Below, piece by piece: positions 42,420 through 49,171 of a stretch of DNA of 64,000 nucleotides. Made by a program: the position numbers and the translations under genes. Source of the DNA: Oleispira sp. (GTDB taxonomy: Bacteria > Pseudomonadota > Gammaproteobacteria > Pseudomonadales > Oceanobacteraceae); assembly GCA_047616865.1 (NCBI GenBank), contig JBLGBO010000009.1, forward strand, positions 72,076-136,075, given 5' to 3'. How positions within the stretch are numbered: the first letter of the stretch is position 1; each line of letters opens with the position of its first letter. A model generated the notes under the pieces. The model saw nothing but the letters and a program-made list of their open reading frames with translations, searched no databases and was not told the DNA's origin.

Positions 42420-43295
42420 TCAATCGCAATGATGAATACTTTCATTCAATACTCGATGAAATAAAGAATTCAATAAATCTATCGAATCTCCCTTGTCGCC
42501 ATATTTCCCAGCATAGCTTTCAAGCCTTAATAACTCAGTTTCAATAAAGGTATTAATGGGTTTTATAGGCAACGACAAAGCTTTTTCTGTCTCTGCTCGT
42601 TTACGGCGTAATAATTCGTTTATGTCTTCTAGCAAGCTATCGTTATCAAGTACACGATCCAACAAAACCGAAAACTGAATCGGCGCAGGTGTTTTATAAC
42701 GTTCTAACCAGCGTATCGATAGCAAAGCCCTTAGCACATAGAGATATTTTTTATAGGGCACTTTATCTGCTTTAAGATAACCTCGGTAATTGGTCTTGGC
42801 CATGCTGTGATAATGATGAATACCTTTTTCAGCGCTGTATATTTCTGGCAATAATGCCTTAGCACTCAAAGCAAAGTTTCCTTCGTTCGTATAAACAATC
42901 GGTGAATTGATCCACTCTACAAATGACGGATTGGAATTGCTGTATAGCTTCAAGGCTTTACGCAGATCCCAGCCATTAATATCGATCTCATCTACGATGG
43001 GATATTCGATAACATCTCGTTTAGCTTCTAAATCTATGTCTATATACCAATCTTTTTTGTGTATATAGATAAAACGTACATCATAATCACTCGTCGCTGA
43101 GGCAAAACCCCAAGCACGACTCCCTGACTCAATCGCTAGCAATACTTTAACGCCGTGCTCGATTTCTGCCGCGGCGATACGGTCTAATATTTCGTCGTGT
43201 ATGTTTTTTTCTATGTGCTCTATGGCATTTATTTCCATATCCAGTTTCATTTTATTGACTTTCCTTAATATATTTTTTAACCAGGCTAATCTCAT
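42420..43295 (-). CDS. Pol-beta-superfamily nucleotidyltransferase, RlaP-like (RNA-ligase-associated NTase family)
   Basis: GSRAWGFASATSDYDVRFIY is a hG[GS]x9-13DhD minimal NTase active site. 291 aa. Last gene of the rtcBA-linked module. Confidence 0.65.
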   Translation of the reverse strand: MRLAWLKNILRKVNKMKLDMEINAIEHIEKNIHDEILDRIAAAEIEHGVKVLLAIESGSRAWGFASATSDYDVRFIYIHKKDWYIDIDLEAKRDVIEYPIVDEIDINGWDLRKALKLYSNSNPSFVEWINSPIVYTNEGNFALSAKALLPEIYSAEKGIHHYHSMAKTNYRGYLKADKVPYKKYLYVLRALLSIRWLERYKTPAPIQFSVLLDRVLDNDSLLEDINELLRRKRAETEKALSLPIKPINTFIETELLRLESYAGKYGDKGDSIDLLNSLFHRVLNESIHHCD

Positions 43296-43324: not shown

Positions 43325-44521
43325 TTATGTTCCTGACTGTCTAGTAGCAGAAGGGATTTTCACCAAATCATTCATTAAACCATCCAGCCCACCGTAAACA
43401 GAGATGTTATTAATACGGGCTGATATTTTTTCAAGTGTTTCCAGCTCTTTTAGGCGTAACAAGACAGCGTTATTTTCCATGACCTTCGCGGTATTGTGCA
43501 AGGAGCGCATCGCTTGAGTTTCTTCACGCCTTTTAATTAGATTAGCCTCAGCTTCTTTTTGCGCCTCTACTACCTTATTTAAAATTGCCTTCATGTCACC
43601 AGGCAATATAATGTCTTTGACACCCACCGACTGGACTTCAATGCCATACTCCATTAACCGAGTAGATATGCTGTTTTCTATGCATTCATTTAAGCTGTCT
43701 TTGTTTTCTAGCAACGCATCCAACGTTTGCGTACCTACGGCTTCACGTAAACGCAGCTGCATTTCGCGGTAGATAAAATCATTCATGCCATTCAATTTTA
43801 ATGCCGCTTTTTCTGCATCTACTATACAATAACTGGCACTTAGATTAATTCGCAAACTAACCCGGTCGCGCGTCAAAATCTCCTGCCCACTGACCTCCAG
43901 CGATTGTAAGCGTAAATCGATCATTTGCACTTCGATTGCTCTATTGTACTTCCAGAAACCGTACTGGCCTGGTGGCAAGAGGCGCTCATATTTACCGTTT
44001 ACAATTAATAGTGCGCAAAACTCGTTACGTACTTCAATATAACTAACGGCCTGAGCCAGTGTGTGTATTTTTTCCGAACCCGTTTGCATGATGGCATTAG
44101 CACCACGGCCTAAAAGATTCAAGTAACGACTATCGATTTGATAGCTTTCGCTGATATCAATAACCTTCACCGATACTTGTTCAGTATTTTCCATTTCATC
44201 ACCGCTAAAAAAGGCAACAAAACGACCTGGCTCCAACAGATCAACTAAGTGTCCATCACGAAAGACAAGGCCAACCTGATTATCAGTCATTTCATAATGA
44301 CTGATATAAGGCGTTAAAATTTCTGCGTATTTATTTAATAAAAACTTGGCATTATCATCTTGAAAATATAAACCTGTCACGTCGTGAATTTTTAATTCCA
44401 ATGCGCCATTGGCAGAAAATTCTCTGTACCGACCTGGCATTAATATTTTTTCAAAGCGCTGGCAGCGATATAACAAGCCTATCTGATTATCGGCGATATC
44501 ATAAGTGTTCCATAATTTCAT
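43325..44521 (-). CDS. SPFH/band-7 (slipin-like) domain protein with triplicated N-terminal SPFH-head motif
   Basis: C-terminal core GVKDIILPGDMKAILNKVVEAQKEAEANLIKRREETQA is SPFH. Three N-terminal copies of xNQxGLxxRxG...LxPGxYxF. No clear TM segment. Confidence 0.75.
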   Translation of the reverse strand: MKLWNTYDIADNQIGLLYRCQRFEKILMPGRYREFSANGALELKIHDVTGLYFQDDNAKFLLNKYAEILTPYISHYEMTDNQVGLVFRDGHLVDLLEPGRFVAFFSGDEMENTEQVSVKVIDISESYQIDSRYLNLLGRGANAIMQTGSEKIHTLAQAVSYIEVRNEFCALLIVNGKYERLLPPGQYGFWKYNRAIEVQMIDLRLQSLEVSGQEILTRDRVSLRINLSASYCIVDAEKAALKLNGMNDFIYREMQLRLREAVGTQTLDALLENKDSLNECIENSISTRLMEYGIEVQSVGVKDIILPGDMKAILNKVVEAQKEAEANLIKRREETQAMRSLHNTAKVMENNAVLLRLKELETLEKISARINNISVYGGLDGLMNDLVKIPSATRQSGT

Positions 44522-44761
44522 TTCATTTTACCTAACTCATACGAGCCATATTATATTTACTGAGGCGAGACCCTATCGGGAATGGTATGGTATTTTGCTT
44601 AGGTTAACAGGTTGATAAATACAGGGGCTACTCAGTGGTAATAACAACGGTATTCGCTTGCTATTACCATTAATTAGCATGTCGTTATCAAGTCCGCTAA
44701 CCAACCGACAAAATGCGATGCCATTGCAAATGGACCTCTATCAATTTATTCAAAGTTTAAA

Positions 44762-44826
44762 TGACTTTGTGAGGATTTGAACCTCGGGTCTTACGACCTT
44801 ACCGTAAGCCGTTGTTTAGACGGTGA
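44762..44826 (-). ncRNA. tRNA 3'-half-like element (class-II-like variable hairpin + T-arm GGTTCAAATCC + 3' acceptor strand, no 5' half)
   Basis: Reverse complement ...GGTCGTAAGACC-CGAGG-TTCAAAT-CCTCA-CAAAGTC-A. No matching 5' acceptor strand upstream. Directly abuts the tRNA-like element at 44829-44901. Confidence 0.4.
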
Positions 44827-44828
44827 AT

Positions 44829-44901
44829 GACTATCGCAGGAATCGAACCTGCACCGATCGACTTTTGTCGATTGCTCTAACTCACTGAGCTACATAGTCG
44901 C
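44829..44901 (-). ncRNA. non-canonical tRNA-like element (acceptor stem, D-arm and T-arm are good; anticodon loop has 6 nt). Candidate YrlA/Y-RNA-like RNA or tRNA pseudogene.
   Basis: Reverse complement GACTATG-TA-GCTC-AGTGAGTTA-GAGC-A-ATCGA-CAAAAG-TCGAT-CGGT-GCAGG-TTCGATT-CCTGC-GATAGTC-A. Stems pair, but the anticodon loop is 6 nt, so it is not a functional decoder. Confidence 0.5.
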
Positions 44902-45042
44902 ATTTAGGTTTTTTATCAGTGGTACACAATAAGTGAATAACCTTGCGCCAGCCTGGCATACAGAACCAGAACCATTAACTTAATAAAATATTGCCTAAAT
45001 AATTTTGTTCGAACGCTGTTTAAAACAACGCCGTCGCATTTT

Positions 45043-46086
45043 TTAATTTATCAATTCTTGCAAGTTTTTTAGGGGCGGTATATCCAGCTGCCAGCAACGC
45101 TTGTTTAATTGGTTCACTTCAATATTCAAATCCAGAAGTTGTTGAATAACGTTAATATTGGTAGTTGTATGTAAACTTGGTCGCCCTGTTTTAAAACTTC
45201 CCCCAGCAAATAACATCGGCAGTAATAATTGATCCGCCAAATATTCGCATACAGGCACTTGATTTTTCAGGTAACTTTGCACCCGCTGTTCAGCCAAGTT
45301 AGCGACCTTTTCGGCACGTAAACCTCTGCCACCCAGCTCATCAAATACTAGGGTGGTGTTCTCCATCGTCAGCTTCAGTGACAACAAATTTCCTGGCCCC
45401 GTAGACTCAACTAACTGCTCACTACACTCTTCTGGTAGCCAATGATGCTGCTGTTGTAATTGGCGTAATTCACGCACTAACACCTGCTGGGGAATTTGAC
45501 TGCCAATAGCATTGGCTTTTTTATCCACAAGTGCACCACTGTCTAATAACTGCAATGGCTCTAACACTTTGTGCGGTTTCAATTCCATCTTGATTGCACC
45601 ACCACCAGCGGGGTTAAAACCGTATTTCAATAGTTCGGCGGTGATCTGATAACCCATCTTTCTAACGGCCAAAATAAAACTGTTATTTAAAAATTCAAAA
45701 CTTGGTGCTTTGCTATTATGTGTACCGCCATTAATAATTACAGAGGATGCATGCGACTGTAATAATAGAGGCATCATTATAGTTTGTAGTACCAAGCTAG
45801 TACTGCCAGCGCTACCTACGGAAAATTCATAATCGCCGGGAATTACATTCCCTGGTTTAAAAATAACCTCTTGAGATCCCAGCTCATCACCACTGACATC
45901 TGCAGAACAAATAGTTTGTGCAGCGCGCAAGCAGGTTAAGTGCTGGCGTAACAAGCCAGGTTTTTTACGACCCCCTCGGATATTAACGATACGCACATCA
46001 AGACCTAGACACATCGCCAGGGTCAGTGTGGTGCGAAATATTTGTCCTCCACCTTCACCGGCGGCGCCATTAATTGTTCTCATCAT
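45043..46086 (-). CDS. rtcA: RNA 3'-terminal phosphate cyclase
   Basis: MMRTINGAAGEGGGQIFRTTLTLAM... aligns with E. coli RtcA [20 protein letters not shown]. The active-site His region (LQTIMMPLLLQSH) is present. Confidence 0.9.
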   Translation of the reverse strand: MMRTINGAAGEGGGQIFRTTLTLAMCLGLDVRIVNIRGGRKKPGLLRQHLTCLRAAQTICSADVSGDELGSQEVIFKPGNVIPGDYEFSVGSAGSTSLVLQTIMMPLLLQSHASSVIINGGTHNSKAPSFEFLNNSFILAVRKMGYQITAELLKYGFNPAGGGAIKMELKPHKVLEPLQLLDSGALVDKKANAIGSQIPQQVLVRELRQLQQQHHWLPEECSEQLVESTGPGNLLSLKLTMENTTLVFDELGGRGLRAEKVANLAEQRVQSYLKNQVPVCEYLADQLLLPMLFAGGSFKTGRPSLHTTTNINVIQQLLDLNIEVNQLNKRCWQLDIPPLKNLQELIN

Positions 46087-46123
46087 TCTTCCTTTAAATA
46101 CAATTTTCACTAATACTAAGTAA

Positions 46124-47350
46124 TTAACCTTTTACACAGACGACCTGTTTTAGCGTGTAGACAACTTCTACCAGATCTTTTTGCGCCTCCATTACCTTCT
46201 CAATGGATTTGTAAGCTGAAGGGGTTTCATCCAATATGCCCTCATCTGTTCTGCACTCCACACCCTCAAGTGCTTTTTTATGCTCAGTCATCGACACTAA
46301 TTTCTTAGCGGCCGTTCGTGACATCACACGTCCAGCACCATGACTGCAACTGCAAAAACTATCAGCATTGCCCAGTCCCCGCACAATAAAAGATTTTGCA
46401 CCCATGCTGCCAGGGATAATGCCCATCTCATCTTTTTGTGCCGATACCGCGCCCTTACGGGTAACCAATACATCCTTACCAAAATGATGCTCACGAGAAA
46501 TATAGTTATGGTGACAATTCACGGCTTCCACTCTTGCCTCAAACTCAATTCCCATAGTGAGCCTTACCGCCGCAATTACCCGAGCCATCATGACCTCACG
46601 GTTAATACGAGCAAAATTTTGTGCCCACTCTACCGCCTCAACATAATCAGTAAAATTATCGGAGCCCTCTGGCAAATAAGACAAATCGTTATCGGGCAAA
46701 TGTATATGCCAGCGCTCCATATCCTGCTTCGCCTTTTCGATAAAGTGCGTCCCTATACGGTTGCCTACACCACGAGAGCCACTGTGCAGCATAATCCATA
46801 CACTATTGTGCTCATCTAGGCACAACTCAATAAAATGGTTTCCCGTTCCCAACGTACCCAAATGATTCATGTTGTTGGTATTTTTCAAGACCTTATGTTT
46901 TTCTTTTAAAATATCAAACTGACCAGCCAATGGAGTCCACGCCTTAATTACATCTGCGGGTAAATCATTCCACGACCCCTTATCTCGCGCACCACGCAAG
47001 TGCCTAGAACGACCATGAGGAACGGCTTTTTCAATTGCAGAACGAATAGCAAATAAATTATCCGGTAGCTGATGAGCCAACAAACTGGTTTTAACCGCCA
47101 TCATCCCGCAACCAATATCCACTCCGACGGCCGCTGGAATTACCGCACCAATGGTGGGTACTACCGAACCGATCGTAGCGCCTTTACCTAGATGCACATC
47201 CGGCATGGCGGCAATCCATTTATGAATGAAAGGCATACGTGAAATATTTTTTAGCTGTTCACGGGCTTTGTCTTCAAACGGAACCCCTCGGGTCCAGGTT
47301 TTAATCGGTACACCACCGTCTTGCATCACTTCATAGGCTTCATCTGACAT
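46124..47350 (-). CDS. rtcB: RNA-splicing ligase RtcB
   Basis: 408 aa with PDVHLGKGATIGSV and C-terminal His/Cys metal-site motifs of RtcB. Confidence 0.95.
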   Translation of the reverse strand: MSDEAYEVMQDGGVPIKTWTRGVPFEDKAREQLKNISRMPFIHKWIAAMPDVHLGKGATIGSVVPTIGAVIPAAVGVDIGCGMMAVKTSLLAHQLPDNLFAIRSAIEKAVPHGRSRHLRGARDKGSWNDLPADVIKAWTPLAGQFDILKEKHKVLKNTNNMNHLGTLGTGNHFIELCLDEHNSVWIMLHSGSRGVGNRIGTHFIEKAKQDMERWHIHLPDNDLSYLPEGSDNFTDYVEAVEWAQNFARINREVMMARVIAAVRLTMGIEFEARVEAVNCHHNYISREHHFGKDVLVTRKGAVSAQKDEMGIIPGSMGAKSFIVRGLGNADSFCSCSHGAGRVMSRTAAKKLVSMTEHKKALEGVECRTDEGILDETPSAYKSIEKVMEAQKDLVEVVYTLKQVVCVKG

Positions 47351-47416: not shown

Positions 47417-47433
47417 AGCGATGACTATGCCAA
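47417..47433 (-). promoter_or_regulatory. sigma54 (-24/-12) promoter for rtcBA
   Basis: Minus-strand TTGGCAT-AGTCA-TCGCT has GG-N10-GC at canonical spacing, ~70 bp upstream of the rtcB ATG. The RtcR bEBP is encoded divergently. Confidence 0.45.
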
Positions 47434-47575: not shown

Positions 47576-49171
47576 ATGAAAACTGTTGCTATTAGTATAT
47601 TGGGTACCGTGCTAGATCGACGAGGAAAACGCCAAAACCGCTGGGATAAGTGGCGACCTACCGTCTCCATCTGCCAACAAGATGACTTAGTGATCGATCG
47701 TCTGGAGTTAATCTTTGATAACCATTCGCTAACCTTGGCTGAACAGGTCAAAGACGACATCGAGCAATCATCACCAGAAACCGAAGTTGTGCTCCATAAG
47801 GTTAATTATTTAGACCCATGGGACTTTGAAGATGTTTATAGCCAGCTTCTAGATTTCAGTCGAGCCTATGATTTCAATACCGATACAGAAGACTATTTAG
47901 TCCACATCACCACAGGGACACACGTTGCTCAGATCTGCCTGTATCTACTAACGGAATCTGGCTACCTGCCTGGGAAGTTAATACAAACCTCACCTTCAAA
48001 AAGTGAAAACAAAGCTAAGGGCTCTTATCAAATCATTGATCTGGATTTATCACGATATGACCAAATAGCCTCTCGCTTCAATAAAGAACATACTGAAGGC
48101 ACCACGCATCTCAAAAGTGGCATTGACACAAAAAACGAAAAATTTAATCTAATGATCGAGCAATTAGAGAAAGTATCCATTCGTTCCGATGAGCCTATTT
48201 TAATCACTGGACCAACAGGCGCAGGCAAATCGAAGCTGGCTGAGCGTATTTATCAATTGCGCAAACAGCGCGCCAAACTAAAGGGAAAACTCATTACGGT
48301 AAATTGTGCAACTTTACGTGGCGATAACGCCATCTCAGCATTATTTGGCCATAAAAAGGGAGCGTTTACTGGAGCGGCAGCAGACCGCACCGGTCTTTTA
48401 AGGGAGGCTAATGACGGTTTATTATTTTTAGATGAGATTGGTGAGCTTGGACTGGATGAGCAAGCAATGTTACTCAGCGCCATTGAAGATAAGCATTTTA
48501 TGCCACTCGGTTCAGATAAAATGGTGTTCAGTGATTTTCAATTAATTGTCGGCACTAACAGAGACTTAATTAAGCAAAGCCAACAAGGAAAGTTCAGGGA
48601 AGATCTATTAGCGCGTATTGATTTATGGACTTACCGATTACCAGCCCTAAAAGAACGCTTAGAAGATTTTGACGCCAATCTTGATTTTGAATTAGATAAA
48701 TTTTCTAGCAAGGCCGGTTACCTAGTGAAATTCAACAAGGCGGCCCGCGAAAAATATTTAGCCTTTTCTAAATCACCAGCCGCTAGCTGGAATGCTAATT
48801 TTCGGGATCTAAATGCCAGCATCACTCGAATGTCTACCCTGTCAGATGGAGGACGCATTACCGAAGACTTAGTTACTGAAGAAGTACTACGACTAAAGCA
48901 CAAATGGCGCGAGACAAATAGCACTGATCCCACACTGGTTTTGCAGTCACTGTTAGATGAGAAGACTTTAAGCGATATGGATTATTACGACCAACTTAAC
49001 TTACTTAATATCATCGATATTTGCCGCAACAGTCAATCAATGGCCGAAGCTGGGAGAACGCTATTTGACAAAAGCCGCCAAATTAAAAAGTCATCCAACG
49101 ACTCTCATAGAGTAAAACAACTACTCAGTAAGCTAGATATTTCTTTCGAAAAAATTCGACAACTGCCATAA
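47576..49171 (+). CDS. rtcR: sigma54-dependent transcriptional activator RtcR (N-terminal CARF-like domain, AAA+ sigma54-interaction domain, C-terminal HTH)
   Basis: Walker A GPTGAGKS and the GAFTGA motif (HKKGAFTGAAADR). 531 aa, divergent from rtcB. Confidence 0.9.
   Translation: MKTVAISILGTVLDRRGKRQNRWDKWRPTVSICQQDDLVIDRLELIFDNHSLTLAEQVKDDIEQSSPETEVVLHKVNYLDPWDFEDVYSQLLDFSRAYDFNTDTEDYLVHITTGTHVAQICLYLLTESGYLPGKLIQTSPSKSENKAKGSYQIIDLDLSRYDQIASRFNKEHTEGTTHLKSGIDTKNEKFNLMIEQLEKVSIRSDEPILITGPTGAGKSKLAERIYQLRKQRAKLKGKLITVNCATLRGDNAISALFGHKKGAFTGAAADRTGLLREANDGLLFLDEIGELGLDEQAMLLSAIEDKHFMPLGSDKMVFSDFQLIVGTNRDLIKQSQQGKFREDLLARIDLWTYRLPALKERLEDFDANLDFELDKFSSKAGYLVKFNKAAREKYLAFSKSPAASWNANFRDLNASITRMSTLSDGGRITEDLVTEEVLRLKHKWRETNSTDPTLVLQSLLDEKTLSDMDYYDQLNLLNIIDICRNSQSMAEAGRTLFDKSRQIKKSSNDSHRVKQLLSKLDISFEKIRQLP

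Follow-up and report, generated by a model that had tools for sequence, protein, structure and literature searches.

A stomatin-like SPFH protein with a triplicated SPFH1 unit and no membrane anchor, encoded beside a tRNA-like RNA in an RtcB RNA-repair operon of Oleispira sp.

Introduction

Proteins of the SPFH/Band-7 superfamily have been studied almost solely as organisers of membrane microdomains, with the vault as the one known exception (PMC12624060). Their canonical order, described by cryo-electron microscopy, is a transmembrane (TM) segment followed by SPFH1, SPFH2, CC1, CC2 and CT, where SPFH1 comprises strands beta1-beta5 and the beta5-beta6 linker marks the border between SPFH1 and SPFH2. 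The TM helix or hairpin is typical of the superfamily, not universal, being absent from flotillin and from the major vault protein (MVP) (PMC12624060). Here we describe an SPFH/Band-7 ("slipin family") gene of Oleispira sp., located in a stretch of 64,000 nucleotides (assembly GCA_047616865.1, contig JBLGBO010000009.1, positions 72,076 to 136,075 of the forward strand). This whole stretch is called the window, and all coordinates of the locus refer to it. The gene occupies positions 43325..44521 on the minus strand and is a 398-aa open reading frame (ORF) with an ATG start.

The closest described system is the Band-7/b7a-tRNA module. In Wang et al. (bioRxiv 10.1101/312249), Burroughs and Aravind (2016) are quoted for a Band-7 protein and a predicted "band 7-associated tRNA" beside RtcB, and this preprint presents the module as apparently interchangeable with Rsr/YrlA. 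The locus in the window matches this description exactly, as it has a Band-7 gene in an RtcB cluster and a tRNA-like non-coding RNA gene adjacent to it; no feature distinguishing the two was found, and 77 of 80 related loci agree with respect to the tRNA-like gene. Ro60 (Rsr) and YrlA of rsr-yrlBA-rtcBA operons occupy the same slot and follow the same logic, a ring or scaffold protein coupled with a tRNA-like non-coding RNA under RtcR. Their relation to the window protein is by analogy only, since the TROVE/vWA fold of Ro60 is unrelated to SPFH. Pseudomonas aeruginosa likewise carries an SPFH gene, PaFlo8 (PA14_60630), inside an rtcR-rtcB-rtcA locus; PaFlo8, which we liken to the window gene by locus and not by sequence, has been treated as a membrane-microdomain protein (PMC13086221).

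With respect to architecture, the nearest proteins are stomatins, HflK/C, QmcA, prohibitin and erlin, which give the best sequence and fold matches and share the SPFH1-SPFH2-CC1-CC2-CT core with the window protein. In these proteins a single SPFH1 follows an N-terminal TM helix or hairpin, and many of them are paired with NfeD or a protease, whereas the window protein has no TM helix, carries three SPFH1 units and has an RNA gene and RNA-repair enzymes as neighbours. MVP, the one SPFH protein known to be free of membranes (PMC12624060), combines nine N-terminal beta repeats with an SPFH shoulder and a cap helix, and small RNAs associate with it. The family and its RNA-repair context are already known from comparative genomics (2016). 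Multiplication of SPFH1, variable copy number and near-universal loss of the anchor are undescribed in the accessible literature, in which the 2016 study is represented through quotation only.

Results

Three tandem SPFH1 units in the SPFH protein

The window protein has the layout SPFH1x3-SPFH2-CC1-CC2-tail, without a TM helix. Two extra SPFH1-like five-strand units, delimited by hhalign and by strands predicted with AlphaFold2 (AF2), are located at aa 4-50 (R1; 44372..44512, on the minus strand like all other parts of the gene) and aa 73-123 (R2; 44153..44305). They are followed by the native SPFH1 (R3; aa 159-205, 43907..44047), determined by AF2 strands and by the start of Pfam Band_7, which extends from profile position 3 at aa 164 onwards. 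The alpha/beta core of SPFH2 (aa 206-306, 43604..43906) is assigned by alignment to the stomatin profile and by AF2 secondary structure. Two long helices equivalent to CC1 and CC2 come next (aa 308-349 and 352-370, 43406..43603; AF2 and conservation), and the protein ends with a tail that contains a conserved VYGGLDG (aa 373-398, 43325..43405 including the stop codon). The AF2 model, built on an alignment of 39 full-length homologues with 54-84% identity (A1), has a mean predicted local distance difference test (pLDDT) score of 81.2; the score falls below 50 in aa 373-398, consistent with a disordered tail.

Band_7 (PF01145) is the single Pfam domain of the protein (aa 164-334, E 4.8e-29, profile positions 3-175 of 176). 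Its score of 102.1 bits, against a gathering cutoff of 23.6, places the protein in the SPFH/Band-7 superfamily, while NCBIfam models disclosed only sub-threshold similarity to HflK/HflC. The family profile matches Pyrococcus horikoshii stomatin 3bk6 with E 6.7e-27 and human stomatin with 2e-23. In a Foldseek search with the full-length model the best match was stomatin (2.4e-15), accompanied by HflK, prohibitin, QmcA and erlin, and the superfamily succession of SPFH1 beta subdomain, SPFH2 core and two long helices is present in the AF2 model. Conservation in the family is highest in CC1/CC2, where columns 300-364 of A1 are near-invariant. This region also aligns with the coiled coil of chains from the human stomatin cage, as far as residue 289 in chain 9oh9_A.

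Repetition of the SPFH1 unit is real and well above chance. In A1, a consensus common to all three positions reads D-x-[EQ]-x-[GA]-L-[LV]-[YF]-R-x-G-x-[FL]-x-x-[VL]-L-x-P-G-x-[HFY]. When sub-alignments of the 39 homologues (R1, aa 1-72; R2, aa 73-158; R3, aa 159-235) were compared by hhalign, R1 matched R2 with 96.9% probability (E 2e-10), R2 matched R3 with 96.2% (E 2.6e-9), and R1 matched R3 with 73% (E 3e-5). As an internal control, the whole N-terminal part was aligned with the C-terminal 240 aa, and both R1 and R2 align solely to the first 45 positions. Five strands are predicted in each unit, at aa 4-9, 13-19, 22-27, 30-35 and 41-47 in R1, at 73-77, 82-88, 91-96, 101-105 and 116-122 in R2, and at 159-164, 168-174, 177-182, 185-190 and 196-202 in R3. 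The unit hidden Markov model (HMM) also detects three copies at equivalent positions in the Escherichia coli and Citrobacter homologues, which are ~40% identical and outside the training set (i-E 2e-6, 7e-5 and 6e-8). Since the beta5-beta6 linker marks the border between SPFH1 and SPFH2, this five-strand unit corresponds to SPFH1.

Neither the N-terminal profile (A2) nor the single-unit profile (A3) had a significant match among PDB sequences; HflK residues 98-124 (YTIKEAERGVVTRFGKFSHLVEPGLNW) were hit at the correct position in the profile search, but with E 0.75. Foldseek with the isolated N-terminal model retrieved nothing from the PDB at E <= 0.001, and only HflK and erlin-2 reached a probability of >=0.9. 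Because the sequence profiles give no significant match, the link of R1 and R2 to canonical SPFH proteins runs through the R3 of the family itself and through structure. In the close family the mean net charge differs between the units, R1 being basic (+2.2) and R2 acidic (-4.7).

These results can be set against the initial annotation, which placed an SPFH protein with three copies of an N-terminal head motif at 43325-44521. The ORF is indeed there, on the minus and not on the plus strand; a plus-strand reading was ruled out, as its translation is broken by many stops. The three quoted motifs were located at aa 11-35, 80-105 and 170-192, and their interpretation as tandem SPFH heads agrees with the hhalign comparisons, the unit HMM and the five strands that the suggested AlphaFold model predicts in each of R1, R2 and R3. 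What had been called a motif is, however, a defined subdomain, SPFH1 with strands beta1-beta5 (PMC12624060). A core proposed at residues ~200-330 is present, although Pfam Band_7 already starts at aa 164, so that the third head is the N-terminus of this domain itself and the other two are extra: two added units and a native one, instead of three heads ahead of a core. Domain parsing, proposed as a possible refutation, yielded one Band_7 only, and the repeats in front of it are not a different fold; they are homologous to R3 of the same family.

Absence of a membrane anchor

The maximum of the Kyte-Doolittle 19-residue mean in the SPFH protein is 1.02, far below the values of a TM helix, and by this measure neither the N-terminal TM helix nor the membrane hairpin of the superfamily is present in the window protein. 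A TM-like segment (19-residue mean >=1.6) is missing in 176 of 180 complete family members as well. Homologues share the start methionine (M-x-x-W-K-T...), with Trp4 invariant, and because they begin at the identical residue an anchor hidden upstream of the annotated start is excluded. The earlier proposal of a protein without membrane anchor, soluble or peripherally associated and set among RNA-repair genes, is thus borne out by the hydrophobicity of the protein and its relatives, by their common start and by the rtc genes nearby.

The tRNA-like RNA

A tRNA-like gene of the b7a-tRNA type lies upstream of the SPFH gene, at 44828..44899 on the minus strand (Rfam tRNA, 51.2 bits; ARAGORN "tRNA-???"). 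It forms a full cloverleaf with an abnormal anticodon loop, in which ARAGORN could not assign an anticodon, and CCA is not encoded. Among Rfam families, Y RNA included, only tRNA was matched in the 521-nt intergenic region that harbours this gene.

Directly 3' of it, a second, partial tRNA-like module (44765..44823, minus strand) consists of two hairpins and a T-arm GAGGTTCAAATCCTC (44771-44785) followed by AAAGTCA. The T-arm GAGGTTCAAATCCTC is conserved across loci and has a unique exact match within the window, and AAAGTCA resembles the acceptor 3' strand of the first module. The fold of 44755-44905 has z = -2.9, and in the minimum free energy structure the single 5' acceptor strand is paired with the distal strand of the second module. 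According to this predicted fold, the region may form two alternative cloverleaves sharing one 5' strand.

The operon in the window

On the minus strand the genes follow in the order rtcB, rtcA, the 521-nt gap with the tRNA-like gene, the SPFH gene and a gene for an RlaP-family nucleotidyltransferase; rtcR is divergent. The last gene of the series (42420..43295, minus strand; PF10127, E 1.9e-81) is located 29 nt downstream of the SPFH gene, so the placement of the latter between a tRNA-like RNA and an RlaP-like nucleotidyltransferase was correctly recognised in the initial annotation. Members of the RlaP family add nucleotides to RNA 3' ends (PMC12776372). rtcA, for RNA 3'-phosphate cyclase, spans 45043..46110 (minus; PF01137, E 4.3e-72). 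Its listed ORF has a GTG start and nine extra residues ahead of a double methionine (MKIVFKGRMMRTING...), and the true start is probably one of the two ATGs. The RNA ligase gene rtcB is at 46124..47350 (minus; PF01139, E 3.3e-127), and rtcR, for a CARF and sigma-54 activator protein, at 47576..49171 (plus; PF06956, E 8.6e-85; PF00158). According to a Salmonella study (PMC7790460), RtcR responds to damaged tRNAs. No TROVE domain was found in the five operon proteins scanned. NfeD, the partner in prokaryotic stomatin-NfeD operons, is not among the neighbours, which are instead the tRNA-like RNA, rtcA and RlaP.

A sigma-54-like -24/-12 element (TGGCATAGTCATCGC) was detected by pattern match with 2 mismatches at 47418..47432 on the minus strand, 68 nt upstream of rtcB, and is a candidate for the RtcR-dependent promoter of the whole operon. 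Matches to the pattern across the window are not above chance, and it is accordingly the position of the element, and this alone, that recommends it. Between rtcA and the SPFH gene no terminator-like site was found on the minus strand, and nothing convincing was found as an internal promoter that would separate the SPFH gene from rtcBA.

Gene neighbourhoods of relatives

Our survey covered 80 related loci, each from a different species, and genes were counted if they lay no more than 6 kb from the SPFH gene. In 77 loci a tRNA-like gene precedes the SPFH gene at a distance of 288-516 nt. RtcB was found in 65 loci, RtcR in 55, RtcA in 46 and RlaP in 13. These counts identify the tRNA-like gene and the SPFH gene as the invariant core of the arrangement, to which rtcR, rtcB and rtcA are frequently linked. 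In one relative with five units the order is rtcR | tRNA-like-SPFH-rtcB-rtcA-rlaP.

Predicted "anticodons" vary widely among the 77 loci: CAT occurs in about one third, and the rest have many different triplets or, as in the window, none that is assignable. Five-unit relatives are also preceded by groups of such genes, L083 (804-1124) by four tandem tRNA-like genes and L085 (2892-4496) by an array of ten tRNA genes, and the SPFH-tRNA link may extend to tRNA arrays.

In 18 of the 80 loci (for example L027 4842-5399, L036 4859-5416 and L059 4823-5398), the gene immediately preceding the tRNA-like gene, in the same orientation, encodes a conserved HNH endonuclease of ~185 aa (PF14279/PF01844); counted anywhere in the locus, this endonuclease occurs in 27. 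The HNH gene is absent from the window.

Unit number and distribution of the family

A word-indexed search with a threshold of E <= 0.001 returned 7,715 proteins. Among the best 120 homologues, which come from Microbulbifer, Saccharophagus, Cellvibrionaceae and others, all are ~380-390 aa long with 95-100% coverage, and the name "slipin family protein" is frequent. When the N-terminal profile was used in an exhaustive HMM search, 983 cluster representatives were recovered (427 at E <= 1e-10), among them many longer proteins in which 3-7 stretches match. Units were counted with the single-unit HMM on complete proteins among the best 150 matches: 40 proteins have three units, eight have four, six have five, three have six and two have at least nine. 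In ten longer relatives (408-894 aa) all units are N-terminal to one Band_7 and to conserved helices that contain RREET, and Pfam models recognised no domain besides Band_7. The two relatives with at least nine units are L081 2609-5293 (P0232, 894 aa) and L082 6001-8364 (P0136, 787 aa); DUF2330, a MatE transporter and a HEAT-repeat protein are encoded in their vicinity.

In enterobacteria we observed a two-gene island composed of genes for a slipin family protein and an RlaP-like nucleotidyltransferase, inserted between yjbD(DUF3811)/rluF and lysC, as illustrated by L087 4445-6898 (E. coli STEC639) and L086 3969-7922 (Citrobacter freundii). In Citrobacter, rtcR adjoins the SPFH and nucleotidyltransferase genes only, and there is no rtcBA beside the island. 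Among 5,426 complete E. coli genomes, 1,625 (~30%) carry the 2.45-kb island over at least 80% of its length. Its leader in E. coli contains a near-consensus sigma-54 element (CTGGCACGCTTCTCGCA) and the T-arm hairpin only, with no full tRNA. A plasmid origin was considered and rejected, as full-length matches in the plasmid collection are chromids or mis-assigned chromosomes.

Discussion

We place moderate confidence in the view that the window gene encodes a cytoplasmic, TM-less protein of stomatin type in which SPFH1 is triplicated, and that this protein is the partner of the upstream tRNA-like RNA. Together they constitute the Band-7/b7a-tRNA module of RtcB repair operons, and would most likely act as an oligomeric, RNA-bound scaffold for RtcR-induced repair. 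In such a scheme, accumulation of damaged tRNA ends would trigger transcription of the operon from the RtcR/sigma-54 promoter. The protein would assemble through its conserved CC1/CC2 into a ring or cup, by analogy with stomatin, HflK/C, QmcA, prohibitin and erlin; conservation of these helices and their alignability to those of the human stomatin cage are indirect evidence for this step. The extra SPFH1 units would replace membrane contact and form a protein rim, which, alone or with SPFH2 and CC surfaces, would bind the tRNA-like RNA. The resulting ribonucleoprotein (RNP) might work as a scaffold or chaperone, concentrating or presenting both the enzymes (RtcB, RtcA and RlaP) and broken tRNA or rRNA, comparable to the role proposed for Ro60-YrlA. 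In Anabaena, derepression of rtcB and a tRNA operon is accompanied by that of a slipin gene.

Several observations weigh against this scheme. RNA binding, oligomerisation and a function in repair are steps that we infer for the SPFH protein. The E. coli homologue does not share the basic R1, so that an RNA-binding rim is not established. Thirteen of the 80 loci are without any Rtc gene within 6 kb, and seven of these carry the HNH nuclease instead, which indicates that the module is not strictly an accessory of repair. Both tRNA-like and Rtc genes are missing from the vicinity of relatives with at least nine units. Finally, deletion of PaFlo8, matched to our gene by locus and not by sequence, was silent in general assays of growth, virulence, motility, biofilm and peroxide response (PMC13086221).

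The same features can be accommodated by other explanations. The protein could be a peripheral membrane scaffold similar to flotillin, with its SPFH1 units lying on the inner face of the cytoplasmic membrane and the ring forming a microdomain that either tethers RNA and repair enzymes or is unrelated to RNA. Canonical SPFH1 itself touches the membrane and flotillins have no TM helix (PMC12624060), and a basic R1 in most relatives, together with the invariant Trp4, would suit anionic lipids. We nevertheless regard a membrane scaffold as fairly unlikely: there is no hydrophobic segment in the protein (maximum 1.02), R2 is strongly acidic, a partner such as NfeD or a protease, usual for membrane stomatins, is missing, and the near-obligate partner is an RNA gene (77 of 80 loci). 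Variability of the anticodon loop among loci, the HNH gene that immediately precedes the tRNA-like gene in 18 of the 80 loci and is present in seven of the 13 without Rtc genes, and the tandem tRNA-like genes or tRNA arrays that adjoin relatives would fit a conflict module. In it, the tRNA-like RNA would decoy or sense tRNA-targeting toxins such as anticodon nucleases or phage factors, and the SPFH oligomer would control an effector, for instance the HNH nuclease, with RtcB as one of several outputs. This is the least probable of the explanations considered, given that the window has no HNH gene, that repair enzymes under RtcR control predominate among the partners, and that no toxin or immunity signature was found at the window locus.

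A closed capsule similar to the vault, in which rings paired rim-to-rim through R1 would enclose the tRNA-like RNA and/or damaged RNA with enzymes, free of membrane, is in our opinion very doubtful as an account of the window protein. It is suggested by a domain order equal to that of MVP (an array of small N-terminal beta domains, SPFH "shoulder", long helix, tail), by a dedicated small RNA as in vaults, by a repeat number expandable to at least nine in relatives, and by the vault being the one known membrane-free SPFH assembly (PMC12624060). Full-length Foldseek matches to MVP (E 8e-11 to 5e-10) also cover 414-465 aligned columns, compared with ~250-290 for stomatin and HflK. MVP differs, however, in having nine repeats and Pfam families of its own. 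Vault repeat (PF01505) and MVP_shoulder (PF11978) did not match the window protein or seven multi-repeat relatives at E up to 1. The isolated N-terminal model did not retrieve MVP, and at the sensitivity used the units resemble SPFH1 of prohibitin and HflK rather than MVP repeats. With neither the Pfam models nor the N-terminal model pointing to MVP, the parallel with the vault is an architectural one, and the repeats may or may not share an origin. Bacterial MVP homologues described elsewhere (10.1101/872010) were also considered; they are true MVP homologues of Myxococcales, Cytophagales and cyanobacteria, and do not belong to the slipin family of the window.

Extended to the whole family, the vault parallel leads to a broader conjecture, improbable as we judge it at present. 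The family would be a prokaryotic membrane-free SPFH cage with a wall of iterated SPFH1 units, from three to at least nine per chain, whose three-unit, Rtc-linked members package or present tRNA-like RNA. It would then be a bacterial counterpart of the vault, and possibly its evolutionary model, with MVP repeats themselves being iterated SPFH1.

Returning to the scaffold of RNA repair, which we favour, the significance of the locus lies in the family it represents. In this large group of bacterial proteins, found in ~30% of complete E. coli genomes, the anchor has been lost and the subdomain with which canonical SPFH proteins touch the membrane has been multiplied, and gene linkage connects the group with RNA repair and with a small tRNA-like RNA. 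It offers a tractable system for two questions, namely what an SPFH ring does off the membrane, and what repair gains from the accessory RNPs of RtcB operons, be it Ro60/Y RNA or Band-7/tRNA-like RNA. A closed assembly, should one be found, would also have a bearing on the origin of the vault.

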